DNA from: Candidatus Dormiibacterota bacterium
GTDB lineage: Bacteria > Chloroflexota > Dormibacteria > Aeolococcales > Aeolococcaceae
DNA length: 64,000 bases
Direction: 5' to 3'
Assembly: GCA_963709585.1 (NCBI GenBank)
Contig: CAVPXI010000014.1
Span: 160,001-224,000 of the forward strand
In this document: one piece after another, positions 1,966-28,704 of the stretch
How positions within the stretch are numbered: the stretch's first letter is position 1
Layout of the letters: every line of letters starts with the position of its first letter
Position numbers and translations under genes: made by a program
The notes under the pieces: generated by a model
Databases searched by the model: none
What the model saw: only the letters and a program-made list of their open reading frames with translations
What the model was told of the DNA's origin: nothing

Positions 1966-2082
1966 CGTTGGGCATCGCCGCCGCTTTGCCGAGTTCTAGG
2001 CAGCACGCCGCCTGGGTGATGGGCGATGTCGATAATCCCTATCCCATAAGAGCAACGCGGAGCGAGAGGGATTCGAACCCTC
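1966..2082 (-). mobile_element. att-like junction 1: short tRNA-Ser 3' fragment (T-arm + acceptor, 2057-2082) with left CGTTGGG motif
   Basis: GCGGAGCGAGAGGGATTCGAACCCTC at 2057-2082 is identical to copy 4; CGTTGGG at 1966, 91 bp to the left. Confidence 0.75.
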
Positions 2083-2276
2083 AAACTTGCGCGCTGGGGT
2101 GGCACGCGACGCTGTATCGTGGACGCGCATCAGAGCATTGGAACTCTGGCACAGGCCCGTCAGGGGCGTCCTGCCGCCGTCGGAAGATGCAGCGCCAGCG
2201 TAACCTCCGCGCGACCAGCCATCTCGGCGTGCCCACCATGCTTGGTGGGTGTGCTCAGTTGGAAGGCGTCTCAGCG

Positions 2277-4778
2277 GTGGATCTGACCACTGAGCGAGGG
2301 TTCCGTGCCGTCGACATGATCAGTCGGGCCAGGGATGCCCAAGAACTCATCGACGCTGTCCTTCAGGGCCTTACATCGCATGGTCTGCGAGGCTCGTGGG
2401 GCACGCTCCGTGGTGATGAGGTGGTCATGGCCGGCGTCGCGGTGCCTGACGATGACACCGCGCGCATCGAGGAGATACTTCGGGTCCCGCTCGGATCGAT
2501 GCGCTTCCAATTGGCAGCCTACGCATCGTTCGCAACGGCCGTGCGCCGGCGCACCACAACCATCGAGGAAGCGTTCCCGCACCGGATGATCTCGATGTTT
2601 CCGAATCTCACCGACGCAGAAAGGGCCGCAGTCCGGAAGCACCTGGGTCCTGGCCCGTTGATGGTCGCGCCCATCACCGACGACGACACGATCCTCGGTG
2701 TACTCCTTGCATGGGGTCCGGGCGTGGCATCGAAGAGACGTGTGGTCGAGAGTCTGGCGACGCTGGCGGGATTGGCATGGCACAGGGTGCAAGCACCCAC
2801 GGGGGCGGTTCGCGCACCCGACAAGAGGAGCGTCTTCCCGACCGGTGAGCTCGCGAACGCCATCGCCGAGCTCCTCTCCCCCGGCACCATGCGCGCAGCG
2901 CTCCAGCCCGTTGTCCGTCTACGGGATCGCACCGTGCTGGGCTACGAGGCACTCTGCCGCTTCACACCGCGTGGTGGCTTACGGACGCCTGACGACCTGT
3001 TCGCGGCCGTCATCATCACCGGCCAGAAGCTCGACGTCGACGCTGCCTGCTTGACCGCGGCGTTCGCCGCCGGGACCCAAACGCCGCCGGCTACCCTCTT
3101 CGTCAACGTTGCCGTGGAGACGCTGGTCGAAGGAAGCCCGGCTGGAGACCGCCTCTCGCGCATGACCGAGACTGCGGGAGTTGCTCCGGAAAACGTCGTC
3201 CTCGAAGTGAGCGAACGCACTCCGATCGGCGATCTCACGCGCTTGCGACAAGTCGTCGCTGAGCTGCGCGCACGCGGCTTTCGCATTGCCATCGATGATG
3301 CCGGCGCGGGCCACGCCAGCATGCTCGTTATCGCCGAGGTGCAACCCGAGTTCATCAAGATCGACCGGGAGCTGATCCATGGGATTGACGTCAGCGCCGC
3401 ACGGCGTGCGTTGGCGGTCTCGCTGCTCTCCTTCGGGGCGCATATCAACGCTCGTGTCATCGCAGAGGGTATCGAAACCGACGATGAGCTCCAGACGCTA
3501 CTGAGCCTGGGTGTTCAATTCGGCCAGGGGTGGCTCCTCGGCCGCCCCGTAATGGTCGCGCCGCCGCTGGATGCGACCAGCGTGGTGGCCGTCACGTCCG
3601 ATTGGTTCAAGGAGCAGCGCACCGCCTCGTTCAGAACCGTGGTCCTCGAGGTATCGCCTAACCACCTCGATGGCCGCAAGCCGGCAGCGCTTGAACCCAC
3701 TGGAAAACGGTCTGCTCTGCCCCGCGCCCTTATCAATGCCGCTGCGGCGCTCCAGTCGGAGCACGACCCAGCCGGCATTCTGCGGGTCATCGCTGAGCAG
3801 CTGCCATCCGTTGTCCCTGTTGACGCTGTCTATATCTATGCCGCCGACGAGAGTGACAACAGGTTCCTCCCGGTCTATGCCACGGGGAGCGAGGCCAAAG
3901 CGCGGATGGCATACGGCTACTCCATGGATCTGGGCGTGAATGGGTGGGCATTCAAGCTTGGAATACCGCAGTACGTGAAGGATGTCAGCGCACACCCTGC
4001 GACGATCACGATTCCTGGAACGCCCGTTGGCGAGGCCGAGTCGTACCTCATCATCCCCCTCATCGCTGGGGATCGGCGGCTGGGTGTGCTCGACTGCAGC
4101 CGGCTGGGCACCAATCGATTTACGAGCCGCGACTTGGAGGCAGCAGCGCTATTCGGTCACACGGCGGCTGCCGCATGGCGCAATGCTGAGCTCCACGCGG
4201 AGCTGACCGAGCGCGCCATCTTGGACCCTTTGACGGGTCTCCTTAACAGTCGATGGCTTCGCGAGGTCGGCGAGCGCGAAGTGTCTCAGAGTCTTCGCAG
4301 TGGTCAGTCGCTTGCGGTCCTGGTGCTCGACCTCGACCGGTTTAAGCAGATCAACGATACCGGGGGGCACAGTGCGGGTGACCTCGTGTTGCGCCGGGTG
4401 GGCACTGTGCTCACCGGCATGATTCGCGCCGGTGATGCAGCGGTACAACTCGGCGGCGAAGAATTCCTCATCGTTCTCCGTGATACCGACACGGCAGGTG
4501 CCGAACGGGTGGCGGCGGAGTTTCGCGATCGGCTCGCAGCAGTTCCTCTCCCCCGGAGCTGTCTGCCTCGCCGCAAGCTCACGGCTTCTGCTGGCGTCGC
4601 CGTGCTTCCTCAGAATGGGAGCGGCCTCTCCGAGTTGGTGAGGGCTGCGGATGTGGCCATGTATGAGGCAAAGCGCGCAGGTGGTGATCGGCACCAACTC
4701 AGTTCCCACCGCCCAAACAACCGGCCATCAGTGCGACACAACGGCAAGATCGCTGCTGCGGCTGTCTTGCCCCGCTGA
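2277..4778 (+). CDS. GAF-like/EAL/GAF/GGDEF c-di-GMP signalling protein
   Basis: GYEALCRF, IAIDDAGAG, IKIDR, IAEGIE, GQGW (EAL); DPLTGLLN, DLDRFKQINDTGGH, GGEEF (GGDEF). Start placed at GTG 2277 because the upstream ORF extension overlaps att site 1. Confidence 0.9.
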   Translation: MDLTTERGFRAVDMISRARDAQELIDAVLQGLTSHGLRGSWGTLRGDEVVMAGVAVPDDDTARIEEILRVPLGSMRFQLAAYASFATAVRRRTTTIEEAFPHRMISMFPNLTDAERAAVRKHLGPGPLMVAPITDDDTILGVLLAWGPGVASKRRVVESLATLAGLAWHRVQAPTGAVRAPDKRSVFPTGELANAIAELLSPGTMRAALQPVVRLRDRTVLGYEALCRFTPRGGLRTPDDLFAAVIITGQKLDVDAACLTAAFAAGTQTPPATLFVNVAVETLVEGSPAGDRLSRMTETAGVAPENVVLEVSERTPIGDLTRLRQVVAELRARGFRIAIDDAGAGHASMLVIAEVQPEFIKIDRELIHGIDVSAARRALAVSLLSFGAHINARVIAEGIETDDELQTLLSLGVQFGQGWLLGRPVMVAPPLDATSVVAVTSDWFKEQRTASFRTVVLEVSPNHLDGRKPAALEPTGKRSALPRALINAAAALQSEHDPAGILRVIAEQLPSVVPVDAVYIYAADESDNRFLPVYATGSEAKARMAYGYSMDLGVNGWAFKLGIPQYVKDVSAHPATITIPGTPVGEAESYLIIPLIAGDRRLGVLDCSRLGTNRFTSRDLEAAALFGHTAAAAWRNAELHAELTERAILDPLTGLLNSRWLREVGEREVSQSLRSGQSLAVLVLDLDRFKQINDTGGHSAGDLVLRRVGTVLTGMIRAGDAAVQLGGEEFLIVLRDTDTAGAERVAAEFRDRLAAVPLPRSCLPRRKLTASAGVAVLPQNGSGLSELVRAADVAMYEAKRAGGDRHQLSSHRPNNRPSVRHNGKIAAAAVLPR

Positions 4779-4836
4779 TCTGACCAGGACGAACGAGGGA
4801 ACCCCACTCGGGGGATTCTCACCAGTATCCTCTTCC

Positions 4837-4880
4837 ATGCGCGTCCTAGTTCTCGGCGCGGGGTTTGGTGGTCTGGACAG
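4837..4880 (+). pseudogene. 5' remnant of an FAD-dependent oxidoreductase (SQR/NDH-2-like)
   Basis: MRVLVLGAGFGGL Rossmann start preceded by a TATCCT -10-like box; similarity ends just before the att arm at 4925. Confidence 0.55.
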
Positions 4881-4924
4881 CTGCGAACTCCTGAGCAACT
4901 TCACCCGTGCCGGATGGCTCAAGC

Positions 4925-5190
4925 CGTTGGGACTTCACTGGGACTCAGACACCATTGGGCGCGAGTAGGTCGCGCCGTTTGATAAGGCGAAGTTCCTTAT
5001 ATTGCAATGGAAAACCGGAGCGAGAGGGATTCGAACCCACGTGGCGGGTTACCCCACCAACCGCATTTTCAGAGCGTCTGAGCGGGGTGCACGGAGGGGC
5101 ATACGGGGGCACTCCGTATTCGAAATCGAAATGGAAAGGGCACCGCGGGGCAGGCGCGGGCAACCGCGTTGGGTCTCCGTTGGGTCTGGG
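4925..5190 (-). mobile_element. att-like junction 2: tRNA-Ser 3' half (5015-5072) with both flanking arms
   Basis: Minus strand reads CTGAAAA loop, TGCGG, variable arm, GGGTTCGAATCCCTCTCGCTCCG. Left repeats CGTTGGGACT/CACTGGGACT at 4925/4936; right CGTTGGGTCT x2 at 5167/5178. Confidence 0.85.
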
Positions 5191-5243
5191 ATTAGGGGCA
5201 TTTCGTCCCTGGGGACTCCGGAGCTTAGAGGTTCTGGACGTTC

Positions 5244-5984
5244 TTATCCAGGTCGGTCTGACGTCCGCGCGCTTGACGCGTGCCGGGGGTCGGGGTTAGG
5301 GTCCAGTTCGGCCAAGTCGTCCGCGAGTTGGAGCGTTTCCTCTACATGTCGCTGCGTCAGGTCGGCCGCAGTCGGGATGTCGCGCGCTGCCAGCGCGGCA
5401 GCGATCCGACTGTGGCCAACACGGCTCGTCCTGCGCAGTCCACGATCGCGCAACACGATGGCTCGGTAGCGATCAGTTCGTGTCCACAGCTGCTCCAACA
5501 GATCAGCAAGAACTTCGTTGTGCGAGGCCGCATAGATGGACAGATGAAAGTCACGATGAGCGCGAAGCTGCGCGTGCAGGTCTCCGGCGTGTGACTGCCG
5601 CGCTAGCGCTGAGATCTCTCTGAGTTCTCGTGGGGTGGCTGATTCTGCGGCCAGGCTGGCAGCGAGCGGCTCAAGCCGCACGCGCGCAACGCACAACTCG
5701 CCGAGTTCGCGCCGCGTCAGGGGTAGGACGCTCACAACCCGGTGTGGGCGAAGCGCGATCAGCCCCTCGCCCTCGAGACGACGCAAGGCCTCGCGAAGCG
5801 GAGTGACAGACAGGCCCAGAGCGTTGGCGAGGCTCTCCTGGTTTATCGTCGATCCCGGAGCGAGCGTCCCCTCAAGTATCTGCGCCCGAACCTCGACATA
5901 GGCTGCTTCGGCCTTGGTCAGAGCAATAAGGGGAACCCTTGTATACGGCGACGAAATGGCCACCCTACGCTCCACGTCTTTCAT
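5244..5984 (-). CDS. GntR family transcriptional regulator (FCD)
   Basis: wHTH LANALGLSVTPLREALRRLEGEGLI; FCD HRDFHLSIYAASHNEVL. Confidence 0.9.
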   Translation of the reverse strand: MKDVERRVAISSPYTRVPLIALTKAEAAYVEVRAQILEGTLAPGSTINQESLANALGLSVTPLREALRRLEGEGLIALRPHRVVSVLPLTRRELGELCVARVRLEPLAASLAAESATPRELREISALARQSHAGDLHAQLRAHRDFHLSIYAASHNEVLADLLEQLWTRTDRYRAIVLRDRGLRRTSRVGHSRIAAALAARDIPTAADLTQRHVEETLQLADDLAELDPNPDPRHASSARTSDRPG

Positions 5985-6066
5985 CTCCGAGCAACTGTTT
6001 ACACGAGCGTCGACGCTGGTGCGCTACCAGTCTATTCTCGCTCGGAGGTCCCATCGACCGATGACC

Positions 6067-7546
6067 TCACCGTCCAATGCCCTCCGCGCCCCTCCCCTGC
6101 CAAGGCCCCAGGTACTCAGCGAGCTCCGTCGCCACGGCCACGACCTGCGAATCGTGATAGGGGCGTCCGATGACCTGCACGCCCACTGGGAGCCCCTCAT
6201 CAGACTGGCCGCACGGAACAACCACGGTCGGAGCTCTGAGTAGCGTCACAACCCGACAGCAGCTCTCGATTTGAACTCCGTACAGGGTGTGTCGACCGAC
6301 CGTGAACTCGTCGGATCGCGGCGCAAAGGCTGGCACCGAGGCTACTGGCATGAGCAGAATCGGCCACTGCGCCATAAACCGATTGACCCGCAGTCGAATT
6401 TCGTCAGCTAAAGCGGTCAACCTTTGGAATTCCGTAAGTGTGCCTTCAGGACGAGACTCGGCCAGCCACCCGCGAACGTAGTCTGTCAATTCATCCTCGC
6501 GGCCCTGCCACAGACGTTTGTGGTCGGCGAGACCATCGAGGTTGCGGAGCGCGCGGTAGACGGACTCTGCCTCGTCCAGACCCGGCGGCCGCCGTTTGAT
6601 AACCCGAGCACCGCGATCAGCCAGCCCTTGGGCGGCGCGCTCGACCACCTTGACCACATCGGCGCGAACCGGGTGGCTACCGTCCCCGTCGCACCAGGCG
6701 ACGCCGACGCCGGCGGTGCTCTGACCCGCCGGTGATCCAAGTGGCACCGGCACGGCGTTGCCATCGACCCCATCGGGACCGGCCATCACCCCCAACAGCA
6801 CCCAGAGATCACGTATCGAGCGAGCAATCGGCGCAATCGTCTGCAGGCGCGCTTGCATCGATGCACTGTTTGGTGGAACCGGTGATGGAGAGGCTTCAAA
6901 AGGGAGTTGCCCGGTTCCCGGGACGATGCCAGGTGTTGGGCGAAGGGAGACCAGCCCAGTGCAATGGGCGGGTAGTCGAATGGACCCTCCGTAGTCAGTG
7001 CCAATGCCAAAGCCGACCATGTGGGCGCCCACCGCAGCCGCATCGCCACCGCTTGATCCTCCAGGGGAAAGTCGGTGGTCAAGAGGATTCAGAGTGTCCC
7101 CGAAAAGACGATTTCCGGTGTGGATTGCGAGCCCAAATTCGGGGCAGTTTGCCTTTCCAAGAAGAACGGCTCCGGCCGCGCTGAGACGCTCGACGGCTGT
7201 GGAGCCCCAGGGGGACGCGAAATCGCGCAAGATCAGGCTTCCGGCGGTGGCACGCACATCGCGTGTCGCGATGAGATCTTTGACCGTAAATGGGACACCG
7301 GCTAGCGGTCCCGGGTCGACGCCCCGAGCCGTCGCATCGTCGATAGATCTCGCCTGCTCCATCGCTCGATCATCAAGGCGCGTAACGATCGCATTTAAGA
7401 TTGGGTTGCTCGAACTCGACCTGCTCAATATGGGCGGTCAGTACCTCGACGGCGCTGATTTGGCGACGTTTGACACGCGCTGCAATCTCGACTGCCGACC
7501 AATCGACTGGCGATCCGTCGGCGCCGTCAGTGGGTGTCCGCATCAT
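6067..7546 (-). CDS. Amidase-signature family enzyme (frameshift near 7410)
   Basis: GPLAGVPFTVKD, GGSSGG, GTDYGGSIRLPA; N-terminus WSAVEIAARVKRRQISAVEV lies in ORF 7373-7558. Confidence 0.85.
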
Positions 7547-7596
7547 CGCCCCCAGCAACCGCGAGACACCGCGAGTCGGGAATCGTCACCAGGTAT

Positions 7597-8322
7597 CTAT
7601 CCGCTCGCGTCGTCCCATGCAATTGCCCTGACGGGTGACCCGCTCGAGTTGGGCATCCGCAGAGGGAGCCCGGCGAACCGGACTCTCCGGCCAACAAGGG
7701 GCTCCAGGTTCGTCAATCCCTCAATGATATAGATACCGGCTGCCAGGCAGATCCGATGCGCGGGCCAAGGATCTTCGACGTCGGGGCGGTAGCACTCTCG
7801 AATACAGATCCCGTCATACACGTGTTCAAAGCCAAATGGCTCGACACCGACAGCGCGAATCCCTTTTTCGACTAACCATTGAGCGCCGCTGGGCGTCATG
7901 TAGGTCTGGTTCACAAGGTATTCGTCGAAGGTACCCGGTTGCTCAGCTGAATACACGAGGACGATGTCATCGTGTCGGACTTCCGGTTTGGCTTGATCGA
8001 GATCGTCGGCAGTAAGTCCCCGACCGCGCGCGAATGAACAGTCGATCACGACGGCCTCACCGAACAAACGGCCAAGGTCAACTTGGTCGACGGATGGCGC
8101 TCCGCGAACGATATGGCTCGGTGCATCGACATAAGTCCCAAAGTGGTCATTTAGCGTCCACTGGCACTGGGCTCCATTGTCGCCTTGCTCCCAGCTCCGC
8201 AACCACGAGAACTCGAGATCCTTGACCGGGCCGTCACCGACGGCGAGCTTGCCGGCGAGCGCCACAAGTGTGTCGTGGTTCATCGGTCGGGTGAGATCGT
8301 AGATTCGTGGCGCCCAGGCCAT
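7597..8322 (-). CDS. Cyclase family (kynurenine formamidase-like) metal hydrolase
   Basis: IYDLTRP, HFGTYVDAPSH, IIEGLTNL, SSGSPVRAIA; own RBS AAGGAG before ATG 8322. Confidence 0.85.
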   Translation of the reverse strand: MAWAPRIYDLTRPMNHDTLVALAGKLAVGDGPVKDLEFSWLRSWEQGDNGAQCQWTLNDHFGTYVDAPSHIVRGAPSVDQVDLGRLFGEAVVIDCSFARGRGLTADDLDQAKPEVRHDDIVLVYSAEQPGTFDEYLVNQTYMTPSGAQWLVEKGIRAVGVEPFGFEHVYDGICIRECYRPDVEDPWPAHRICLAAGIYIIEGLTNLEPLVGRRVRFAGLPLRMPNSSGSPVRAIAWDDASG

Positions 8323-8348
8323 CGTGCCTCTCCTTGTCGATCCGTTCT

Positions 8349-9477
8349 CTAGCTGACCGCGTCCCGGATATAGTCCATGGCCCGATCGACGTCTCGCCCG
8401 CGCCCACCGAATTGCATTCGAAAGTGACCGCTGAACTCCAAACGCGGACCCCGGCGCAATCGGAACACCGTAACGAACCACGAGAGTGTGCGCGAGCGCC
8501 TCGGCGTCGCCGTCATAGTGCGGGAACACATTGAGTCCACCGGCGGGTGGTGTGCACTGCAGTAAAGGGAGCGCATCAAACGCGCGCACAAGCCGGCGGG
8601 CGCGCGAAGCTGCTTCGGCGACCATCCGATCAACCCAACGGCGAGGGCCGGTTAGCGCGGCAAGCGCCGCCGCCTGGCTGGGCAGGCTGACGCAGAGAAC
8701 TGACCATTCCAAACACGCCGCGACCCGGCCGAAGAGGCTCTCGGGCATCACCGCATAACCAACGCGCATCCCGGGCATCGCGTAGTCCTTTGAGAACGAT
8801 CGTATGAGCACGGATGGGACCGTATTCTGCCCCAAGATCACCGGTGACACGTGGTGACGTCCGCCATATACAAAGTGCGACAACGATTCATCGCTCACAA
8901 GTATCAGCCCAGCATCATGAGCCAACTCGATCGCAGCCGCAATATCTCCGTGGTCAAAGACGTAGCCGGTAGGGTTCACCGGCGTGTTGACATAAAGAAT
9001 CTTCGTTCGTCGGCTGACGTACTCCCGAGCCGACGACCACGAGGGACGAAAGCCATCCTCAAACGGAGACGGAAACTGAACTAGGCGGGCCCCAGCCATT
9101 CTCACCAAGCCTCCGATGAAGAACCCTGGGGCGGGCATGAGAACCTCGTCACCTGGCCGGAGCACCGCTCGAAACACCAGATCTAGGGCATGCATGGCAC
9201 CGTTGGTCACCAGTACCTGATCGGTGCCGGCGGCAATGCCCTCGCCGCTCAGTGCGGTCGCGACCGCTTGCCTCAGCGACGCTTCGACGTACGATGGGGT
9301 GTAGCCCTTGGCGCCCATCGATGTGCTCACGGCCTCTCGAACGTGGGGCGGAAGCTCGACGTGAATCGAGCCGCCCAGATGCAACCGGTCGTCAGGGTGA
9401 TGCTCGTCGAGGAGGCGCTCAATTTGACGAGTGACTGGCTCTGTCGCGCCCTCTGTGCTCCACGTGTCTTCGGCCAT
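8349..9477 (-). CDS. PLP-dependent class I/II aminotransferase (frameshift near 8430)
   Basis: VLVTNGAMHAL, NTPVNPTG, SDE, SFSKDYAMPGMRVG; true C-terminus GHFRMQFGG...IRDAVS is in the 8349-8633 frame. Confidence 0.85.
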
Positions 9478-9500
9478 CGTTTGTCCGAACCGTGCCAATC

Positions 9501-10919
9501 CTAGACCAACTCTTCGAAAGCGGCGCGCGCAATGCTCGCTTCAGCAGCTGCGAAGCGTTTGCGAAGCGCAAAGCTGACGCCGATACCGACGATGGCGTAA
9601 ATGACAACGACGAGTGGCAAGAAGTTGTAAGGCACAGATTCGGGACCACCGAAAGGACTCAGAGCCCACAGGGGGTATATGACCACCGCTGCGCCAACGA
9701 CCGGGAGAACAACATGGAGGATGGGATTGAAGAGGTGCTTAAGGCGCGTGCTGAAGACGATTACAGTCGAGAGGAGAATAAGGACATACACGGGCACCAT
9801 CGCAAATGTCAGAACCGTGCCGAGATACGCGTAGGTGTTCATTGGCCCAACCCATATTCCGAGCACGACGAAGAGGACCAGTGCGAGAGCCCCCTCTCCA
9901 ACGATTGCCACCACGGGAGTGCCAAATCGTGGAGAGACGGTTGCGAGAACCGATGGAAGGAGGCGGTCTCGCGCCATCGCATAATAGATACGCGACACCG
10001 CCAGAGTCGTCAGCAACAACGAGGCCGTAAAGCTCGTGACGCCGGCGACGTCGATGGCAATGCGGAACCCCGGCGCGAAGGTTTGTGCGAGGGAGTCATA
10101 CGGCGCGGCGTTCCCCACCAATCCAGAGATGTGATTGACACCAAAGCCGATAGTAGCCGCGTAGGCACCAAATGTTAGAAACACGCCACCGATGATCACA
10201 GCCGCAAAAAGAGCGATCGGGATCTAACTCCGTGGTCGGGACGCCTCCTCTCCCACCGTGGCCACCGCCTCGAAGCCAACGAAGGAGAGCACCCCGAAGA
10301 CCATGGCGCCGCCAATGGCGCCGAACCCTCCCGATGGGACCTCGAACGGAACGATGCTATTGCCGGCCGCGCCCCCCTTTGCGACCACGATGATGCTCAG
10401 AACCGTGACGATGATCAGCTCGGCAACTAGGATGACGAGCCCGATACGCACGGAAGGGCGCACCCCGAGAATGTTCACCGCAGTGACCAGCACAAGCAGT
10501 ATCAGGGCGAGCACGAGCCAATTAATGTCCACGCCGTACCGGGCCAGGATTGTCGCAACATAAACCCCAACGGCGGCGTACACGCCCGGAACCACCATAA
10601 ACGAGCCTGCGAGGACCAGCCAGCCGACCATGAAGCCGACGCGCTGGCCGAGGGCGCTACGGATCCACGAGTAGTATCCGCCGGCGCTCGCTTGATGTCG
10701 CGCGAGCTGTGCCATGCAAGACGCCACGATGAGCATCGCGATGGTCGAGAGGATGAACGCGAACGGCACCTGAGCGCCAGCAAACGACGCAGCGATCGGC
10801 GTATTGAAGTAGAGCGCGGCCGTCGGTGCATACGTAGCAGTCGCCATGGCAACTACGTCTGTTGCCGTCAGCGCATTCCGCCGGAGTGTGCCGCCCGAAA
10901 CCCCCGCCATTAGTCCCAT
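9501..10919 (-). pseudogene. APC family amino acid/amine permease interrupted by an in-frame TAG (10224-10226)
   Basis: Two same-frame hydrophobic ORFs; junction reads SFVGFEAVATVGEEASRPRS*IPIALFAAVIIGG; SAGGYYSW and MARDRLLP motifs. Confidence 0.8.
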
Positions 10920-10945
10920 GAGATGCGCCCTCCAGGATCTTATGG

Positions 10946-14273: not shown

Positions 14274-14278
14274 GCTGC

Positions 14279-19588: not shown

Positions 19589-19737
19589 CTGCGACTACAC
19601 GCCATTGAGAGGGTTGAAGGCTCAGGTGTTGACGGCGTTGTCGAGTCGCAACACGCGGGCACGTAGCTCACGGCTCGACACCTAGGACGTGTTCCACTAC
19701 CCGTGGCAACGCAATTGGTGACTGGTGCGACCCATGA

Positions 19738-20066
19738 CGTTGGGTCTGCGTTGGGTTCAGACACCGTTGAGACGTCCGTCTCGCCCGGTGTGGTGAGTAG
19801 GAGGCCGGCAGATATCCCTGATCTCATAAAGGAACGCGGAGCGAGAGGGATTCGAACCCTCGTGGCGGGTTACCCCACCAACCGCGTTTCCAGGTCTCGG
19901 GAGCGCGGTGCAAAGCCGTGCGCCGAAGGGCACCCCGTATTCAGAATCCCGTCGCTGAAAGCACCACGATGCAGGCGAAGGCACCCGCATTGGGACTCCG
20001 TTGGGCCTGGATTTGCGGGCTCAGCGGCACGCTGTGCGGCGACCAAGTACGTCAGGTGACAAGACG
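19738..20066 (-). mobile_element. att-like junction 4 (best preserved): tRNA-Ser(GGA) 3' half (19836-19893) with both arms
   Basis: Minus strand CTGGAAA-CGCGG-TTGGTGGGGTAACCCGCCAC-GAGGGTTCGAATCCCTC-TCGCTCCG; CGTTGGG-type repeats at 19738/19749 and 19988/19999. Confidence 0.88.
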
Positions 20067-20208
20067 CTGGTGTGACCAAGGCTGATCGCACAGGTCGATG
20101 TGGTCGTTAGCGACGAGCACCGTAGTTGTGCCCGAGCGTCGACGACGCGCACTCTGAGCGCAGGGCGCCTGGGGTTGCGTCAGAGGGGGACGCTAGCGAG
20201 GAGATCGA

Positions 20209-20871: not shown

Positions 20872-21301
20872 GCGACCGCATGCCCCGTAAGCTGCGCACC
20901 TCCTGACGCAAGCCCGCCGTTTGGATGGGAACATAGCCCGCAATGCGCGGGGCGAGCTTTGTACAGACGTTCGTGATCGACAAGAGCAGCTCGGCCAAAG
21001 GCGCCAAGGGCCGGTGCACAATCGCCGCTCTCAAGCCGATTGGGTCAGCAGGAGTTGCCTGATGATCACGCCACTTGTGTCCGACTGGCGGACTCGAGTG
21101 ACCCAGCGCACCGAACACCCTTGGGGTCGGCCCAAACAGTGGATCGTCGCCATGGACGAAAGCTCGAGCGCGCGCGAGGCTCGCGTGCGTGAGGAGCTTG
21201 AGATCAAGCTGAGGCATCATTCTCAGCCCTGTCGAAGTCCGACAACACGCGTATGGCCCTTGGCGTACTCCCTCGCTGAGGGCACCGTCGCGGGGGTCTG
21301 G

Positions 21302-21616
21302 CTAGCCGGATACGGGTTCTGGTAGCTCAGCTACCCATGGCTCGAGCAGGCGTCCAAAGTTGACCGTCCAGCCCACGCCGAAGACTGTCGGAACCACGAC
21401 GCGACGATCTGCTGGGTTCCAAAGTCGCTCGCGAACCCGTCCTGGGGTTGGCGGACGGAGGTCGTAGGGGATCCGACCGGCGATGCGGCCGTGCCATGTC
21501 CGCTCCTCTGGTGGCTTGCGCAGCTCGATGGCCACAGCGGCGCCGATCAGGGTCAGGCCTACTCCGACGCCCAGCCATCGCGACCTGGACCTTTGTCTGT
21601 GTCGGCGTTCACTCAT
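21302..21616 (-). CDS. DUF5808-like small membrane protein
   Basis: PYDLRPPT...WNPADRRVVVPTVFGVGWTVNFG; GGAGG RBS before ATG 21616. Confidence 0.75.
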   Translation of the reverse strand: MSERRHRQRSRSRWLGVGVGLTLIGAAVAIELRKPPEERTWHGRIAGRIPYDLRPPTPGRVRERLWNPADRRVVVPTVFGVGWTVNFGRLLEPWVAELPEPVSG

Positions 21617-21953
21617 GGGGATATCCTCCGTCACCTGCGAGGCTACCACCACCAGAGGGATCAACACATTGGCCCGTGGCCGGTTTTTCATGAAGGCAGC
21701 GGGGTCCGCTCTGACCTGATCGCCAGCAATCCCGCATCGCGCGTCCGCGCTTCTCGCGTCGACAAAGCTCCGGGTGCTTTTCTCACTCCCAGCGAAGCGT
21801 GTCGTTTGGTGGACCTGCTCCACTGAGACCGCGCGCGTCCGCCCTTAGTCGTCGCCATCAGGTGCGATGCGACGGCCCTGCTCTTCTCTGTTGCCGGGCG
21901 ATTGACCCCGACGGAACAGGGAACACTCGCTACTAACGAAGGCTCAAACGACG

Positions 21954-22212
21954 ATGCGCCGGATTACCACTATCACTGGCCCGGATGGGCAGGTCACCAC
22001 GGTAGTCACCCGCAGCTCCGGGTGCGGCTGCCTGACCATCCTCGCCGCCATCGTCGTCTTTCGTCGTCCCAGCGGGGTTCGGAGCCTGGGCCGTGCCCGC
22101 CTACTGCCTCCTCGGCGTCCTCGTCGTCGCCGGCGCGCTGAGCGCGCTCATTCGCAGGCGTGGGCCGCAGCCGCCGCCTGCACCCGCACCGCCTCCTCCA
22201 CGCGCGACCTAA
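21954..22212 (+). CDS. Small membrane protein with Pro-rich tail (frameshift near 22060)
   Basis: SGCGCLTILAAIVV joined after a 1-bp shift to VVPAGFGAWAVPAYCLLGVLVVAGALSALIRRRGPQPPPAPAPPPP. Confidence 0.55.
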
Positions 22213-22377
22213 CTAGGTCGCTGTCGTCTGGCGAAAGCGCCGCGGGTGATTAATCCTTCCTGGTGCGCAGCAGGCAGAACTCGTTGCCAGGCTGCCTGCC
22301 AGCATGGAAGCGGTCGTGTTCGGACCCGACAGAGGCGCGTGACATGCCCGCCTGCCCGAATGTCACATGTCGGGCGG

Positions 22378-23670
22378 TCAGCCGTCTCGGAACAACCCGC
22401 GCCGCAGCGCCGCTGCCGTCAACTCGTCCTGAAAACGTGGTGCTGCGAGGGCAATGAGAGCATGAGCGCGATGGGCCAAGTCCATTCCGTGGAGGTCGAT
22501 GCGACCGTGTTCGGTGGCGACCCAGTGCACGTGTGCACGGGAAGTTGTCACGCCAGCACCGTCCGCAAGCGTGGGGACGATCCGCGAGAGCTGGCCGCCG
22601 CGTGCAGTTGACAACAGGGCAATCACCGGACGGCCACCACGTGACAGCGCCGCTCCCCGCATGAAGTCCATCTGCCCACCCACGCCGCTATACATGCGTG
22701 CGCCGATTGATTCCGCGCAGACCTGCCCGGTCAGATCGATCTGCAGTGCGGAGTTGATCGCCACCATGTTGTCGAGACGAAGGATGGTCCGTGTGTCGTT
22801 GGTGTACTCGAAGGAGCGCATCTCCAGCATCGGGTTGTCGTTCGCGAAATCGTAGAGGCGTCGGCTGCCATTGAGGAACGCCACGACGAGCTTGCCTCGG
22901 TTGATGGTCTTGCGACTGCCGGTGATCACACCCGCGCTAACCAACTCGAGCACGCCGTCCGACACCACCTCGCTATGCACTCCAAGCTCGCGACGGTCGC
23001 CGAGCAGTCCCAGGACGGCGTTGGGGATCGCGCCAATCCCAAGCTGGAGTGTGGCCCCGTCCTCAATCAGCTCTGCGACATTTCGACCGACGGCAAGATG
23101 CTCCGCAGTGATCACAGGCGCGGAGGCTTCGGGCAGCGGTTCGTCCACCTCGATCACAGCGTCGAAGTCGTTGAGGTGGATAAACGAATCGCCGTGCGTT
23201 CGCGGCATCCTTGGGTTGATCTGGGCGATGCGCAGTCGCGCCGCGCGCGCGGCCGCGAGCGTGCAGTCCACCGAGACACCCAGAGAGCAGTAGCCGTGCA
23301 GGTCCGGAGGCGAGACATGGAGGAGCGCCACATCTAGCGGCAGTCTGCCCGTGCTGAACAGGCGAGGCACGTCTGAGAGGAACACGGGCAGGTACGTCGC
23401 CGCCCCGGTCGCCACCGCATCGCGCGTGGTCGAATCGACGAACAGAACGCAACGACGGATGTTCGGAGCCGCGGCCGAGGCCGCCCTGGCGACGTCACCA
23501 TTGACGTGGAGATGGATCAGCTCCACGTCATGAAGTTCCGACCTGCGGTCCAGGAGGGCGCCGAGGAGCGCGCCTGGCACAGCGCTGCCGGCGTGGAGGT
23601 AGACACGGTCTCCGCTCTTGATCAGTCGGACGGCCTCTCGGGCCGACGTTGCCTGCTTGGGCGCCGTCAT
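22378..23670 (-). CDS. Acetyl-CoA hydrolase/transferase family (4-hydroxybutyrate CoA-transferase-like)
   Basis: VSPPDLHGYCSLGVS, DGATLQLGIGAIP, HSE, INSALQIDLTGQV, SGVGGQMDF, VATEHG. Confidence 0.92.
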   Translation of the reverse strand: MTAPKQATSAREAVRLIKSGDRVYLHAGSAVPGALLGALLDRRSELHDVELIHLHVNGDVARAASAAAPNIRRCVLFVDSTTRDAVATGAATYLPVFLSDVPRLFSTGRLPLDVALLHVSPPDLHGYCSLGVSVDCTLAAARAARLRIAQINPRMPRTHGDSFIHLNDFDAVIEVDEPLPEASAPVITAEHLAVGRNVAELIEDGATLQLGIGAIPNAVLGLLGDRRELGVHSEVVSDGVLELVSAGVITGSRKTINRGKLVVAFLNGSRRLYDFANDNPMLEMRSFEYTNDTRTILRLDNMVAINSALQIDLTGQVCAESIGARMYSGVGGQMDFMRGAALSRGGRPVIALLSTARGGQLSRIVPTLADGAGVTTSRAHVHWVATEHGRIDLHGMDLAHRAHALIALAAPRFQDELTAAALRRGLFRDG

Positions 23671-23966
23671 ATGCTGATTGGTTCGGCGGTGCCGAGCATG
23701 CTCTCCTCACTGATGGGTCGGGGGCCTCCACCAATGCCCGTGCTGAGGCTCGCCCGACCGTCATAACAATCTCAGCAACACCCCGGAGATCGGCGACGGT
23801 TAGCCGGAGACCAGTCGAGCTCTTGCGAGGAGTCAGTGGTGGCGCTGCGGGCCACAAGACGCTTGTCTGAGCGACGCGGCTTTCCTGCTAGATCTTTCTG
23901 AGCTGGCGATTCGAACCCAAGAAGCGCAAGTGTTGGTGGATCGCTGGAGACCAGAGCAAGTTTGGT

Positions 23967-23995
23967 TTGACAACCTAGCATCTGCTTGGTATACT
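23967..23995 (+). promoter_or_regulatory. Near-consensus sigma70 promoter
   Basis: TTGACA-N17-TATACT upstream of the 95-aa gene. Confidence 0.75.
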
Positions 23996-24053
23996 TAGCG
24001 CAGCCTCTCAAGTAGGACCCCCAACGGGACCCGGAGGTGACGAGGAAACAGTC

Positions 24054-24341
24054 ATGACCGACCACGCCGACAAGACCCGCACCGCCAATGCCGCACTGGC
24101 AGAAGGCCTCCAGCAGACAACGGAGATCAAGCTCGCGGCCACCGAGGTCCTCAAGGGCATCACCTCCGTCCTGGTTCCACTGACCGTGTTCATGCTTCCC
24201 AACTCTGAGAAGCTCATCCCGGCCATCGACACCGTCGTGGATCGCAACTTCGACATCGTCACCAAGTTCGTCGAGTGGCAGTACGAGTTTGGGGTCGCCG
24301 TCCTCAATCAGCTGGGGTCCTTCGCGCCCACCTCCAACTGA
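24054..24341 (+). CDS. Small amphipathic helical protein (phasin-like?)
   Basis: GGAGG/GAGGA RBS, strong promoter, helical VVDRNFDIVTKFVEWQYEFGVAVLNQL. Confidence 0.65.
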   Translation: MTDHADKTRTANAALAEGLQQTTEIKLAATEVLKGITSVLVPLTVFMLPNSEKLIPAIDTVVDRNFDIVTKFVEWQYEFGVAVLNQLGSFAPTSN

Positions 24342-24395
24342 TTCCGGCAGGAGCGCGCAGCGCGACGCTGCGCGCTCCTGACCACAACGCTTGAG

Positions 24396-25109
24396 TTGAG
24401 CATGATGAGCGTCCCATGCGCACCGTCCAGGAACTTTCTCCTTCAGGCACTGCCCCCCCTGGAACGGGATGCGTTGTTTGCCCATCTTCGCCCGACTGCT
24501 CTGTCCGTAAAGACGGTGCTCTTCGAGCCTGGGGAAGCGATCGAGTCGGTCCACTTTCCGCTCGACGGCGTCATTTCCCTGGTCACTCCATCCGCCGGCG
24601 GCAGCGTCGAGGTGGCGACCATTGGGAATGAGGGGATTGTCGGGGTGCCTCTCATCCCCGCCGGAGTTAGCTGCGTCCGGGCCGTATCGCCGGTGGGTGC
24701 TCAGACGCTGCAGATGGGCGCCGCGACATTCCTAGCCGAAATTGAGCGCTTGGACGCCTTCCGCCGGCTCGTCGAACGCTACCTGCTCGCACTCTTCGCG
24801 CAGATCTCTCAATTGGCCGCGTGTAATCGCCTCCACGCCACCGAGCAACGGCTCTGCCGTTGGCTGCTCATGACCCATGATCGGGTCGCAACGGACACGT
24901 TCCCGGTCACCCAAGACGTCCTCGGGCAGATGCTCGGCTCTCGGCGTGGGACCGTCACTCTCTCGGCCCAACTCCTCCAAGCGGCGGGTCTGATCGCATA
25001 TCACCGAGGGCGCGTCACCATCGTCGATCGAGAGGGTCTCGAATCCGCTTGCTGCGAGTGCTACGCGACCCTGAAGCATCGGCTGGATCGCGTGCTCGCC
25101 CCCGGATAG
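24396..25109 (+). CDS. Crp/Fnr family regulator
   Basis: VHFPLDGVISL, EVATIGNEGIVG, ACNRLH..EQRLCRWLL, TQDVLGQMLGSRRGTVT HTH. Confidence 0.92.
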   Translation: MSMMSVPCAPSRNFLLQALPPLERDALFAHLRPTALSVKTVLFEPGEAIESVHFPLDGVISLVTPSAGGSVEVATIGNEGIVGVPLIPAGVSCVRAVSPVGAQTLQMGAATFLAEIERLDAFRRLVERYLLALFAQISQLAACNRLHATEQRLCRWLLMTHDRVATDTFPVTQDVLGQMLGSRRGTVTLSAQLLQAAGLIAYHRGRVTIVDREGLESACCECYATLKHRLDRVLAPG

Positions 25110-25443
25110 TGCGCGCACTTGCCTGTCTTCGGGTCATATCAGCAGGCGGTAAGCGGATCCAGGAAGCCAGACTCCTTGCCCCAATAAAGAGACAGACGGC
25201 GGTCGAGAGCGATTTGCGACGCTGAACCCGCCACACTCGTAGCCAGGCGAGTGCGTGGCAACGCTGATCAGGCCGAACGGGTGGCTCCGCGGTTGCAGTT
25301 GCGGGTTCGCTCCGGCGGCTTTGGCAGACGCCGGGAGAAATCGGGCGTAGGATCGTAGGTGGAAGTGGGGAGTCGCTCTCGCGCGCCGGCGCGCCGCGCG
25401 AGAGCGACCCATTGTCAGCGCCGTTACAGGTAGGGCAACCAGC

Positions 25444-26622
25444 GTGGAAGAGGCCGTCATTGTCAGCGCCGTCCGGACACCGGTAGGCACCCTGGGGGGC
25501 ATATTCGTCGAGGTTCCGGCGACGACGCTCGGTGCCATCGTGGTGGAAGAGGCCATCCGTCGCGCCGGCATCGACGTCGACCAGGTCGAGGAAATCCTCA
25601 TGGGGAACGTGCTACAGGCAGGGCTCGGCCAGAACCCGGCGCGGCAGGCGGCGCTCGGAGCCCATCTGTCGACCGCTGTCCCAGCCATGACCGTCAACAA
25701 GGTGTGCGGCTCTGGACTGAAGACGGTGGCATTAGCCGCTCAGGCGATCCGCCTCGGCGATGCCGAGTGCATGGTGGCGGGTGGCATGGAGAACATGTCG
25801 CGCGCGCCATACCTGATGGACGGCGGGCGCTACGGCTATCGCCTCGGCCACGGGCAGCTGGTGGACGTGATCATCCGCGACGGACTCTGGTGCGCCTTCA
25901 CCGACTGCCATATGGGCATTACCGCAGAGAACGTGGCCAAAGAATGGGAGGTGAGCCGGGCCGATCAGGATGGCTTTGCGGTGGCCTCGCAACGAAAGGC
26001 TGGCGACGCGATCAAAGCGGGCCGATTCAAGGACGAGATCGTTCCCGTCCCGGTGGCGCGCCGCAAGGAGACCGTTCTGGTCGACACAGATGAGCACCCG
26101 CGTCCCGCCACCACTCTGGACCTCCTGTCGGGCCTGCGCTCTGCCTTCACAAAGGACGGTAGCGTCACGGCCGGTAACGCAAGCGGTATCAACGACGGCG
26201 CAGCTGCCGTGGTGGTGATGAGCGCATCACGCGCCAAGGCCCAGGGCCTGACTCCGCTGGCCCGAATCCGCAGCTACGCCAGCGCCGGGGTGGAGCCTCG
26301 CATCATGGGGATCGGGCCGATACCGGCGGCGCGGAAGGCCATGGACAAGGCCGGCGTCGGTGTCCGTGACATCGACCTCTTCGAGTTGAACGAGGCCTTC
26401 GCCGCTCAGTCGGTGGCGGTGTGTCGGGAGCTGGCCGTCCCTGAGGACAGAGTCAACGTCAACGGCGGCGCCATTGCGCTGGGCCATCCGATCGGTGCCA
26501 GCGGAACACGCATTCTCACCACGCTCCTGTACGAGATGGCTCGCCGCGACGTGGAGCTGGGCATTGCCGCTATGTGCATCGGCGGTGGCCAGGGCATCGC
26601 CATGGTGGTCAACCGCGTCTAG
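25444..26622 (+). CDS. Acetyl-CoA C-acetyltransferase (thiolase)
   Basis: NKVCGSG, GNASGINDGAAA, ELNEAFA, GGAIALGHPIGASG, MCIGGGQG. Confidence 0.95.
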   Translation: MEEAVIVSAVRTPVGTLGGIFVEVPATTLGAIVVEEAIRRAGIDVDQVEEILMGNVLQAGLGQNPARQAALGAHLSTAVPAMTVNKVCGSGLKTVALAAQAIRLGDAECMVAGGMENMSRAPYLMDGGRYGYRLGHGQLVDVIIRDGLWCAFTDCHMGITAENVAKEWEVSRADQDGFAVASQRKAGDAIKAGRFKDEIVPVPVARRKETVLVDTDEHPRPATTLDLLSGLRSAFTKDGSVTAGNASGINDGAAAVVVMSASRAKAQGLTPLARIRSYASAGVEPRIMGIGPIPAARKAMDKAGVGVRDIDLFELNEAFAAQSVAVCRELAVPEDRVNVNGGAIALGHPIGASGTRILTTLLYEMARRDVELGIAAMCIGGGQGIAMVVNRV

Positions 26623-26839
26623 CACCTCCTCGAGCGGTGACGAACGCGGAGTGCCGGCGTCGCTGGCGTGACGGACGGCGCCGCACGCGGCGAGGGCCGA
26701 ACTCTGGAAGCGCCGCAAACTGCGAGACCTTCGGCGCCAGTCACGTGACCAACGGCCCTGGTCCGGTCAGGGCCACAAGCGTTTTACTGGGATCCGTCCA
26801 AGCCGGGACGAAGCCAACTGATTCGCGAGGAGTCGCCCC

Positions 26840-27778
26840 ATGAAAGCTGCCGTCGTGCACCGGTTCAAGCCGGCACTCATCGTCGAGGAGCGACCGATCC
26901 TAACCCCGTTGGTCGTCGAAGCCGCCCTCGGCCCTCAGGCGGCCGGACTCCCCAATACGAGTATTCGTGCCACCGAATGCGACTGGCCGATGGAGCGAGC
27001 ATTACCATTTGTCCGCGGAGACAGGCCACGGCTGAATCTGCTGCTCCTCGGGGCGCCGGCCAGTGGTAAGGGGACGCAGGCGGACCTTTTAGCCGCGCGC
27101 CTCGACATTCCCGCGATCGCGACGGGGAACATCCTGCGCGCCGAGCTCGCCGAGCGGACCGAGCTGGGGCTGCGCGTCCAGGCCTACATGCAGCGCGGCG
27201 ACCTGGTTCCGGACGCGCTGATGATCGACATCATCAGGAAGCGCCTGCGGGGGAGCGACCGCCGGGACGGCTTCCTACTCGACGGCTTCCCCCGCACCGT
27301 GCCCCAAGCCCGAGCGCTCGACGCGCTGGCGGCGTCGATGGCGACTGGCTTCGACCGCGTCCTATACCTGAACGTGCCCGAGGCTGAGCTGATCCGGCGC
27401 ATCACGACCAGGCTGACCTGCCCGGGCTGCGGACGAAGCTACGGGTTCGAGGCTGACCAGCCCCGACCGTTGGGCTGCGAGGCGGACGGCAGGGACCTCA
27501 TCGTGCGCGAGGACGACCGGCCGGAGACCGCCCAGCGCCGTATTGCGGTCTACCTGGAGAAGACGTTGCCGGTGCTCGATCACTACCGCAAGCAAGGGCT
27601 GGTCGCGGAGATCGAAGGCATCGGCTCAGTCGAGGAGGTCTCCCGGCGCATGCTGCGCGCGCTTCCCGCTCGGCCGGTGGCACAGCGTGTGCTGGGTTTG
27701 GTTGGACGTTCTCGAGGGCAGACCTCAGCGGCACGAGCGCTGGATGGCCAAACCAAACCACACGCCGGTTATCGATGA
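26840..27778 (+). CDS. adk: Adenylate kinase with a degenerate alcohol-dehydrogenase-like N-terminal extension
   Basis: GAPASGKGTQA, GDLVPD, GFLLDGFPRT, LID CPGC..C..D, REDD; first ~60 aa resemble a Zn-ADH N-terminus. Confidence 0.85.
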   Translation: MKAAVVHRFKPALIVEERPILTPLVVEAALGPQAAGLPNTSIRATECDWPMERALPFVRGDRPRLNLLLLGAPASGKGTQADLLAARLDIPAIATGNILRAELAERTELGLRVQAYMQRGDLVPDALMIDIIRKRLRGSDRRDGFLLDGFPRTVPQARALDALAASMATGFDRVLYLNVPEAELIRRITTRLTCPGCGRSYGFEADQPRPLGCEADGRDLIVREDDRPETAQRRIAVYLEKTLPVLDHYRKQGLVAEIEGIGSVEEVSRRMLRALPARPVAQRVLGLVGRSRGQTSAARALDGQTKPHAGYR

Positions 27779-28089
27779 GGTGTACGACGGTCCGCAGGTG
27801 CTCCAGGTCGAGGGCGAGACCCGCGACGAGGCGAAGCTACGCTGGGCGATCGCGAATTGAGCTGAACTCGAAGCCCACCAACCGGAAGCGGGGGCGCATG
27901 GAGAAGGTCGGCACCTCTTGAGCTTGAACTCGCAGTCAGCCACTCTCCAACGTCTACATCAACGTCTGCATCCGCGACAAACACGAGAACATCGGGGAAC
28001 ACGTGGAGACAACTAGTTGGCGAGGCACCGACGTCTCGCCCCATAACCGAAGGGCTGCGGGCTCACGTCAGCAGCCGGAGGGTGATCCA

Positions 28090-28431
28090 ATGGAGCGACA
28101 GATCATCGAATACGAGGATCGCTCGACCGGCGAGCTGCTGAGCAAGGCGTTTGTCGCGAGATGGCTGATCGAACCGGACGAGCATTACCGCTCAGTGCAC
28201 GAGGGTGATGACCTACGCAGCGGGACTCAGGTGGTGGGCGGCACTACGTTCGCCGTCGCCGAGACCGCCAATGGGCAGATGGTGATCTGGAGCGACGCGC
28301 ACAGGTCCAGATCGACATACGACGTCTACGACGGCTTCGATGAGGCCGAGTCCGCGGGCGTCCCTGGTGATGTCGTCGCCATCGCTTCCGATCGAGCCGG
28401 CATCGAGCGCGCTGGACTGCTCGACATTTAG
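28090..28431 (+). CDS. Hypothetical protein resembling the C-terminal part of EXLDI proteins
   Basis: GGAGG RBS; FAVAETANGQMVIW, DVYDGFDE..GVPGDVV, terminal LLDI. Confidence 0.65.
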   Translation: MERQIIEYEDRSTGELLSKAFVARWLIEPDEHYRSVHEGDDLRSGTQVVGGTTFAVAETANGQMVIWSDAHRSRSTYDVYDGFDEAESAGVPGDVVAIASDRAGIERAGLLDI

Positions 28432-28495
28432 CACCCCTCACGAAGTAGGGCCGCAGGCGGCGTCGTTTCGTCAGCGCAAACGCGTTTGCCTGGTG

Positions 28496-28704
28496 ATCGG
28501 AATCACATTGGCATCAGATGAGCCCCTCGTTGAGTCGGCGTGGACGCGATATTTGCAATGTGAGCCGTCCAATTGCCTTATCTGCTAAGGGAAACGCGGA
28601 GCGATAGGGATTCGACCCCTCGTGGCGGGTTTCCCCACCAACCCGGATTTCCAGAGCGTTTGAGCGGGGTGCAAGACAGGGTACGGAGGGGCATTTCGTA
28701 TTCG
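28496..28704 (-). mobile_element. att-like junction 5: degenerate tRNA-Ser(GGA) 3' half (28596-28654), right arm truncated after ~50 bp
   Basis: Minus strand CTGGAAA...TTGGTGGGGAAACCCGCCAC-GAGGGGTCGAATCCCTATCGCTCCG; on the plus strand TGAGCGGGGTGCA and GGGGCATTTCGTATTC follow. Confidence 0.8.

Follow-up and report, generated by a model that had tools for sequence, protein, structure and literature searches.

The window analysed here, 64,000 nt of contig CAVPXI010000014.1 (C14:160001–224000, window position 1 being C14:160001), comes from a metagenome-assembled draft genome of the soil bacterium Candidatus Dormiibacterota (3.52 Mb, 88.8% complete) and lies in a region where at least seven blocks of foreign genes are stacked behind one serine tRNA gene. 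Between C14:158.8 kb and the intact tRNA-Ser(GGA) gene at 234.6 kb, the DNA is best read as a hypervariable integration hotspot. Displaced 3′ fragments of the tRNA gene delimit the blocks, which are probably remnants of integrative elements that accreted in tandem and have partly decayed, similar to cis-mobilizable elements (CIMEs).

A repeat search of the window gave five direct copies of one sequence (2037–2082, 4995–5040, 15125–15170, 19816–19861 and 28576–28621), with spacings between consecutive copies of 2958, 10130, 4691 and 8760 nt. These agree with the five co-oriented minus-strand tRNA-Ser 3′ fragments, and with the sizes of the four intervening blocks, that an earlier sequence-only reading of the window had put forward. 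The whole genome was searched by nhmmer with a profile made from copies c2–c4, and a sixth copy, c0, was found 1.1 kb left of the window; the only further matches were the intact tRNA-Ser(GGA) gene and, weakly, three other tRNA-Ser sites. All copies of the array are on the minus strand and none lies elsewhere in the 3.52 Mb, so that they are not scattered in the manner of miniature inverted-repeat transposable elements (MITEs). The junctions are as follows, with the nhmmer E-value in brackets; types A and B refer to the arm repeats described below.

c0, window −1103 to −1173 (C14:158897–158827), minus strand, outside the window: type-B P arm
c1, 2047–2084, minus strand: T arm and acceptor 3′ strand only, P arm missing (partial copy, 1.9e-5)
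c2, 5002–5193, minus strand: full type-A P arm and 3′ half from CTGAAAA, with one T-stem mismatch, GTGGG (full copy, 3.8e-57)
c3, 15133–15324, minus strand: full type-A P arm and 3′ half, T loop/stem mutated, AATTCC (full copy, 5.2e-58)
c4, 19823–20014, minus strand: full type-A P arm and 3′ half (full copy, 3.5e-59)
c5, 28585–28704, minus strand: core-proximal ~50 nt of the P arm and a mutated 3′ half (partial copy, 2.8e-25)

ARAGORN places the intact tRNA-Ser(GGA) on the minus strand at C14 c[234610,234700], that is window 74610–74700, 10.6 kb right of the window and on the side where the sequence-only reading had predicted it. A tRNA-Ser(CGA) stands back to back with it. The six co-oriented fragments are found 46–76 kb downstream of the intact gene on the same replicon, and inside the window neither ARAGORN nor Rfam at its gathering score detects a tRNA or RNA family.

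The copies share the 3′ part of a type-II tRNA, consisting of the anticodon loop CTGGAAA, the 3′ strand of the anticodon stem, the long variable arm, the T arm and the acceptor strand. In the alignment c0, c3, c4 and c5 begin at CTGGAAA and c2 at CTGAAAA, the 5′ strand of the anticodon stem being gone; four of the window copies thus start at the loop, as the earlier reading had noticed, and tRNA identity extends from the loop to the 3′ end in all but the truncated c1. Upstream of the loop, c2–c4 have ~125 nt in common and c5 only ~50 nt. A full junction is composed of a P arm (~125 nt), the core at the anticodon loop, the tRNA 3′ half (~60 nt) and often a P′ arm (~100 nt) with the same repeats. 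The P arm contains two CCCAACG repeats, phased TGCC motifs and TGAATAC. An alignment of 32 junctions from many genomes shows fixed motifs with variable spacers between them, in the order two CCCAACG 11 nt apart, GTGCC/CTGCC/GTGCC at 10-nt phase, TGAATACG, GTGCCC, TGCCC, CTGCAC and the loop. CCCAACG (CGTTGGG on the plus strand) occurs in the P arm of c2–c4 and again downstream of c2 and c4, which bears out the repeats described on both sides of these two copies; a short hairpin follows the tRNA end, and in c2 and c4 the second CCCAACG-type pair comes ~75–95 nt further on. Two types of arm repeat are combined with one core, type A being CCCAAC/T and type B GATGCCAAT/C. The type-B word matches the P arm of c0 and the repeats behind c1 and c5 (for c1 a type-B-like repeat, GATGCCCAACGGTGATGACAAG, ~100 nt downstream), and hence the array mixes two specificity types.

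Erosion is evident along the array. The P arm is missing in c1 and halved in c5, no P′ arm is recognizable after c3, and the T arm is mutated in c2, c3 and c5 (the mutations of the c5 3′ half being TCCGGG, GGGGTCGAAT and CCCTAT). The variable arm of c3 is identical to that of the intact tRNA. Altogether 25 variable-arm alleles were found, and 19 of them can form a 7-bp stem. Fragments and intact tRNA genes have at least five of the alleles in common, as would be predicted if 3′ halves were repeatedly swapped through integration.

Integrases that belong to such sites were found in relatives. Cognate integrases of the two arm-site types are present in 4 of 41 congeners, immediately downstream of the same tRNA or of a junction. 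In G016 (contig C11, ~64.8 kb), a fragment and the P′ arm CAGACCCAACGCAGACCCAACGG are followed after ~70 nt by a 397-aa tyrosine integrase (type A) with the Pfam domains Phage_int_SAM_3 and Phage_integrase. G005 and G046 have type-A orthologues (80–81% identity) immediately after the intact tRNA-Ser(GGA), and in G005 CCCAAT repeats stand between the intact tRNA and the integrase. In G016 and G043 the intact tRNA is followed by a type-B integrase, 54% identical to type A, with three GATGCCAAT repeats ahead of it. An arm-binding domain was sought in the N-terminal ~70 residues of three of the integrases, and Pfam at E up to 0.1 named nothing there. With cognate integrases directly behind the same tRNA in congeners, the comparison supports the junctions being attachment (att) sites of the P-core-P′ kind, as the sequence-only reading had held, left by an element family that has a tyrosine integrase and uses tRNA-Ser(GGA). 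The crossover would take place in the anticodon loop, and the arm repeats are the putative binding sites of the integrases.

The type-A element of G016 (L026:5900–14760, G016:C11:55.9–64.8 kb) carries a defence-type ABC ATPase, whose best PADLOC matches are HEC-01A, AriA and GajA-like (E 1e-22 to 1e-23), and an XRE-type helix-turn-helix (HTH) protein. An excisionase-like HTH open reading frame (ORF) was recognized by eye at its far end, where the distal P arm and fragment seem to be missing.

The genome studied here also holds a sister island, complete and 8 kb long (C4:62977–70928), at tRNA-Ser(TGA), with its integrase at C4:69592–70716. TGACACC occurs twice in its P arm and twice in its P′ arm, TCTGAATACG is present, and its fragment starts at the anticodon loop. 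The layout is that of the array, but the arm word differs, and the integrase is 49% (tblastn) to 50% identical to type A, a level that no integrase in the genome exceeds.

The array itself has no such gene. ORFs were called by codon-position GC over C14:145–242 kb, and Pfam, run on 106 of the 108 (two spanning the window ends were left out), matched no integrase, relaxase or transposase among them. The statement that the window has no integrase, relaxase or intact tRNA therefore holds. No integrase gene adjoins the intact tRNA or occurs in its flank as far as window 82 kb; in G005, G016, G043 and G046 one does stand next to the tRNA gene. PF00589 has 11 matches in the genome. The sole one on C14, at 321.5 kb, is far from the array, and seven of those off C14 adjoin other tRNA genes. 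A tblastn search of C14:158–235 kb with the type-A integrase, at E up to 10, returned no integrase remnants. The earlier expectation of a tyrosine integrase adjacent to the intact tRNA thus failed in this genome.

Junctions of this kind are common in the genus. A 161-nt P-arm query had matches in 11 of the 24 other members of the genus that were searched and in none of 16 genomes from the sister family, and a longer query gave P-arm-containing matches in 15 of 41 congeners (our count from the match list). In G008, G010, G012 and G017, co-oriented junctions are located 6–14 kb downstream of the intact tRNA-Ser(GGA); the array of G016 extends over ~138 kb on one contig and continues on another, and that of G005 over ~78 kb. 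Among public contigs, the exact junction pattern was found at 21 genome loci, 17 of them from Dormibacterota or Dormibacteria, and at 47 metagenome loci. Junctions were confirmed by nhmmer in 62 of the 68 loci, forming 44 clusters at ≥97% identity; four genome loci (Cyanobacteriota, Saprospiraceae, Massilia and Faecalicatena) and two metagenome loci were discarded as chance matches to the pattern. Contigs of four independent runs cover the junctions. A phage helper was also considered and set aside, the pattern having 0 matches in viral contigs. Two unusual arrangements were seen. In L110:100–566 two junctions are only ~125 nt apart and enclose a near-empty unit, and in L101:1242–1555 two P-arm copies are inverted, 33 nt apart, the sole inverted arrangement observed.

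We propose that elements of one tyrosine-integrase family inserted at the anticodon loop of tRNA-Ser(GGA), each newcomer bringing a new tRNA 3′ half and displacing the old half, together with everything behind it, further downstream. Repeated insertion would result in a tandem array with hybrid P-core-P′ internal boundaries, in which the P arm of the tRNA-side element, the displaced tRNA 3′ half and the P′ arm of the next element are joined. Serial integration with two arm specificities, followed by erosion and reshuffling, is the simplest way to explain the present state; the order of the insertions and the present immobility of the blocks are both what we infer. Since the seven blocks contain no integrase, no cognate one is assembled and the array is partly eroded, the blocks appear to be fixed remnants for now. 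At most they would be CIME-like units, movable only on the arrival of a cognate integrase-bearing element.

The blocks delimited by the junctions have the following contents.

Block 0, 1–2046, extending left to window −1103, with c0 as its distal bound: peptidase C39-like/TIG protein (489–1733, minus strand) and a 484-aa ORF
Block 1, 2085–5001: EAL-GAF-GGDEF protein (ORF 1896–4778, plus strand)
Block 2, composite, 5194–15132: GntR regulator, amidase, aminotransferase-cyclase fusion and split amino-acid permease (5244–10919)
Block 2, second part, 11183–15067: cytochrome b561-like protein, ferric reductase-like protein and ApbE
Block 3, 15325–19822: TetR, SDR and DUF1330 (a 2-kb module, 15834–17834), MerR and CitMHS transporter
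Block 4, 20015–28584: sugar transferase, DUF5808 protein, acetyl-CoA hydrolase/transferase, Crp-like regulator, thiolase and adenylate kinase
Block E, 28705–64000 and on to the intact tRNA (window 74610–74700): ~46 kb of metabolic genes

Each block holds one to nine genes, on both strands and with GntR, TetR, MerR and Crp regulators, and the ApbE stop at 15067 and the GntR stop at 5244 fall where the sequence-only reading had put them. Both ends are complete only in block 3, which has a type-A P′ arm (CCCAACG twice, at about 19738–19756) and a type-A P arm, each with a core; one or both arms are degraded in the others. The tRNA-proximal end of block 1 keeps a type-A P′ arm, GAGTCCCAGTGAAGTCCCAACGG, at about 4925–4946. 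Block E has no integrase, and no arm repeats are found behind the intact tRNA.

The cargo is hypervariable. The flank 5′ of the tRNA pair is 83–89% conserved in G008, G012 and G010, while the 3′ side is not syntenic, its synteny being interrupted by accessory content; for G017 the alignment at the tRNA pair is confined to one stretch of 81% identity, the wider flank being unaligned. Window 30001–50000 has no nucleotide counterpart in the 41 congeners except for one stretch of ~0.3–0.8 kb (window about 39270–40100) over an aldo/keto-reductase gene, with 66–74% identity. Some cargo is 92–95% identical between genomes, for instance pieces of block 4 in the arrays of G017 and G016, and such identity above that of the flank suggests recent exchange.

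Shared cargo often ends away from the cores. A 5.8-kb operon (window 5227–10987) is common to G017 and this genome, with a junction at its P′ side in G017 and at its P side here, the other side being different; with G012, homology is limited to the P′ arm and the final ~0.6 kb of the EAL-GGDEF gene; L039 contains 97% of block 1 at 92% identity and has no fragment at the distal end; and between L103 and L115, which are ~99% identical, there is an indel of which one end coincides exactly with a junction end, while the other is not at a core. When the 35 blocks between consecutive junctions were compared with all collected loci, no pair had both breakpoints at cores, as a clean cassette indel would require. 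The lengths of these blocks, which were not de-duplicated, have a minimum of 1.4 kb and a median of ~4.4 kb.

Strain-level indels were observed when four of 21 listed public runs, all available as assembled contigs, which cannot show rare circles, were compared for excision products. One contig of run X4 joins 15224 to 19928, skipping block 3 and replacing 13 letters, with 77 nt on the shorter side; both breakpoints are inside P arms, ~30–45 nt from the loop and not at the core. Another X4 contig is without exactly 190 nt, 19814–20003, which is the c4 unit; its identity exceeds 98% to the left and right of the gap, the shorter flank being 197 nt. The ends of this deletion share only CAGG, which fits an ordinary deletion. 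Both joints come from the assembled contigs of one run and are thus single observations. Four weak joints (2443 to 14292, side 21; 15319 to 19837, side 22; 5537 to 6326; 8799 to 8958) were not used.

Several results weigh against accretion followed by simple decay. If integrases had been lost by random deletion, pseudogenes would be expected, and none was found. A profile hidden Markov model was made from seven of this genome's integrases and recognizes types A and B (E 1e-107 to 1e-111); within 2.5 kb downstream of the public junctions, in the 28 clusters with at least 1.5 kb of flank, an integrase-like ORF was found behind only one (L091, fragmentary). Paired A/B repeats of the P′ arm are present at +72 to +97 nt from the tRNA end, integrase-less, in ~15 of the 44 clusters, 26 of the 35 inter-junction blocks are shorter than 6 kb, and close strains either have block 3 as a whole or lack it. 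At 88.8% completeness, moreover, an unbinned integrase-bearing element is possible. The scarcity of integrases, the P′ arms, the short blocks and the unitary block 3 fit an integrase-less spread better than simple decay. A second account is kept alive by the rarity of integrase genes and pseudogenes, by the P′ arms still in place and by the small size of the blocks. On this account many blocks entered integrase-less, either through mobilisation in trans or, as CIMEs do, in the company of a helper. What if such blocks still move? They would then be active non-autonomous cassettes, that is, circles with a complete P-core-P′ served in trans by an integrase of rare type-A or type-B helper islands, a reading that we consider unlikely. 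It is equally doubtful that tRNA-Ser(GGA) acts as a gene-capture platform, with integrase-less cassettes carrying a functional spare 3′ half between species, and there is only a modest chance that the array is a double-stranded, tRNA-anchored analogue of an integron with its recombinase in trans. Active cassettes would explain why integrase-less junctions are the rule (27 of the 28 public clusters and all six in this genome), why the PF00589 matches of G005, G008, G010, G012 and G021 are not near the junctions of these genomes, why P′ repeats keep a fixed offset, and why a block with both type-A arms is missing from one X4 contig; cargo 92–95% identical between species whose tRNA-pair flank is 83–89% identical, and helper-type integrases with matching repeats at the same tRNA in 4 of 41 congeners, agree with them as well. 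However, no circle or core-to-core empty site was seen in the contigs, which cannot show rare excision products, and the block-3 joint lies inside the P arm, not at the core. The L103/L115 indel has only one end at a junction, the operon shared with G017 has a one-sided junction in each genome, several arms are missing, reinsertion of three of the fragments would impair the tRNA, and the assembly of this genome contains no cognate integrase. The discrete cassettes of the sequence-only reading are hence not upheld, as homology often stops off the junctions, arms are missing, one strain is without a junction and three fragments have mutated T arms; mobilisation in trans is possible.

The unit of ~190 nt might also be no att scar at all but a small tRNA-derived repeat, like a MITE or a short interspersed nuclear element (SINE), or a structured RNA gene. 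The X4 contig that is without precisely the c4 unit, and the good conservation of the unit across species, are what such a repeat would show, yet the bare CAGG shared by the deletion ends is no more than ordinary deletion needs. Genome-wide dispersal in both orientations, as is typical of MITEs and SINEs, was not seen by nhmmer, the copies being co-oriented and confined downstream of one tRNA here and in congeners, with the inverted arms of L101 as the sole exception. In the 32 junctions, RNAalifold predicts 17 pairs, none of which has a compensatory change (covariation term +0.19), and this fits protein-binding sites and not an RNA; Rfam around c4 at E up to 1 gives nothing credible, its sole match near c4 being a plastid untranslated region that scores 31 bits where 68 are required. 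Such arm repeats moreover precede integrase genes, and we hold this explanation to be very improbable. That the repeats are chance similarity or an assembly artefact is hardly conceivable; a draft metagenome-assembled genome with several split genes is all that speaks for it, against E-values of 1e-57 to 1e-59 and an architecture that recurs in 15 of 41 congeners, in 44 public clusters and in the contigs of four runs. Accretion with partial decay is accordingly the reading we prefer.

Some observations on the contents of the blocks may be added. The 960-aa EAL-GAF-GGDEF ORF of block 1 (1896–4778), as listed, runs through c1 (2047–2084) on the opposite strand, and its true start is probably downstream of the c1 fragment. 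The TetR-SDR-DUF1330 module of block 3 is 87–97%, mostly 92–97%, identical in 22 of 41 congeners, with sharp boundaries and flanks that differ between genomes; it comes just after 5S rRNA-like sequence (recognized by eye) in two genomes and beside the EAL cassette in L039, and its summed contig depth, a sum that includes contigs of other organisms, exceeds that of the adjoining DNA 10- to 50-fold. The module looks as if it moved, or swept through populations, on its own. In block E, a DUF4231 protein without a PADLOC match lies at the distal end, by c5 (window 29247–29789), and is followed by small family-less ORFs; PADLOC gave no defence match for ten unknown ORFs of the window. The 350 nt behind the intact tRNA (window 74256–74605, L002:10256–10605) are 91% identical to G016:C11:55914–56263, an internal array stretch not preceded by a tRNA fragment. 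Split genes, namely the amino-acid permease, two AMP-binding enzymes and an amidohydrolase (9504–10919 and 52917–54451; L002:6589–8111 and 8123–9003), are either accessory-region pseudogenes or frameshift errors of the draft assembly.

The locus illustrates the building of a flexible region of 75–150 kb at one tRNA gene in an uncultured soil phylum. Its att site is unusually legible: the arm repeats are of two types, the motifs are phased and spare tRNA halves are numerous. The site is directly testable with the integrases of congeners. If the integrase-less blocks are mobile, helper islands would be running a natural cassette system; if they are immobile, the blocks are a clean record of accretion and decay.

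With integrons the array has in common that ordered acquired units are split by sites of one tyrosine-recombinase family, the sites far outnumbering the integrase genes. An integron has a head of intI, attI and promoter, its attC sites are imperfect palindromes recombined as folded single strands, and its cassettes are mostly single, promoterless, co-oriented ORFs. None of the three features is found here, and the functional integron proposed by the sequence-only reading is not sustained. There is no intI/attI/Pc platform beside the array. Instead of attC-type palindromes there are tRNA-derived junctions of ~190 nt, in which pairing outside the tRNA T arm is unsupported, and the sites are attP-like, double-stranded and provided with arm repeats. 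The units are multi-gene, with their own regulators and genes in both directions. CIMEs, known from Streptococcus with elements of the ICESt1/ICESt3 type, are att-flanked DNA without recombination or transfer genes, in tandem with related elements. Their mobilisation by accretion with an integrative and conjugative element has reportedly been demonstrated by experiment. The likeness lies in block 3, flanked by type-A P′ and P arms with cores, and in the lack of recombination or transfer genes of their own among all called block ORFs (Pfam); mobilisation of the present blocks is hypothetical, and those examined showed no conjugation genes.

The closest described case is, as far as the published accounts consulted extend, that of the Dehalococcoides ssrA arrays, where tandem islands within 100 kb downstream are delimited by direct repeats of the 3′ end, with extra conserved sequence beside the repeat (PMC3146451). 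As described there, 16 islands have an integration module and 15 do not, and the authors propose cis-mobilizable elements by accretion, or fixation. Those islands have a serine recombinase (DsiB, CcrB-like) and a 20-bp repeat, and about half keep the module (PMC3146451), whereas here the enzyme would be a tyrosine integrase, a tRNA half of ~60 nt is combined with arms of ~125 and ~100 nt, and nearly all blocks are integrase-less. The tycheposons of Prochlorococcus, by their published description, are tyrosine-recombinase elements that target tRNA genes, and successive integrations push older ones inward; partial tRNAs separate neighbours and are strewn through the islands together with degenerate remnants, among which are fragmented integrases, and there are one or two elements per genome (bioRxiv 10.1101/2020.12.28.424599). 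By that description the two systems are alike in stacked tRNA-targeting elements with partial tRNAs between them, but here no integrase remnants were found and there are up to eight or more junctions per array. In the figures given for Islander, 2083 of 3919 catalogued islands belong to the anticodon-centred attP class, and 125 tandems of at least two and four of at least three are recorded, each member needing its own integrase (PMC4383910). The present arrangement, in which an intact tRNA gene is accompanied by displaced 3′ fragments of the same orientation that begin at the anticodon loop, is of the Islander type. By the rule as published there, an array like the present one would be filtered out, and any island finder demanding an integrase per island has this blind spot. 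Among the top papers listed, our literature search surfaced none on mobile elements of Dormibacterota, which is not proof of absence. Tandem arrays with integrase-less members have already been described and the kind of hotspot is known; the present example, a new and very legible array in an uncultured phylum, is an unusually clear one.

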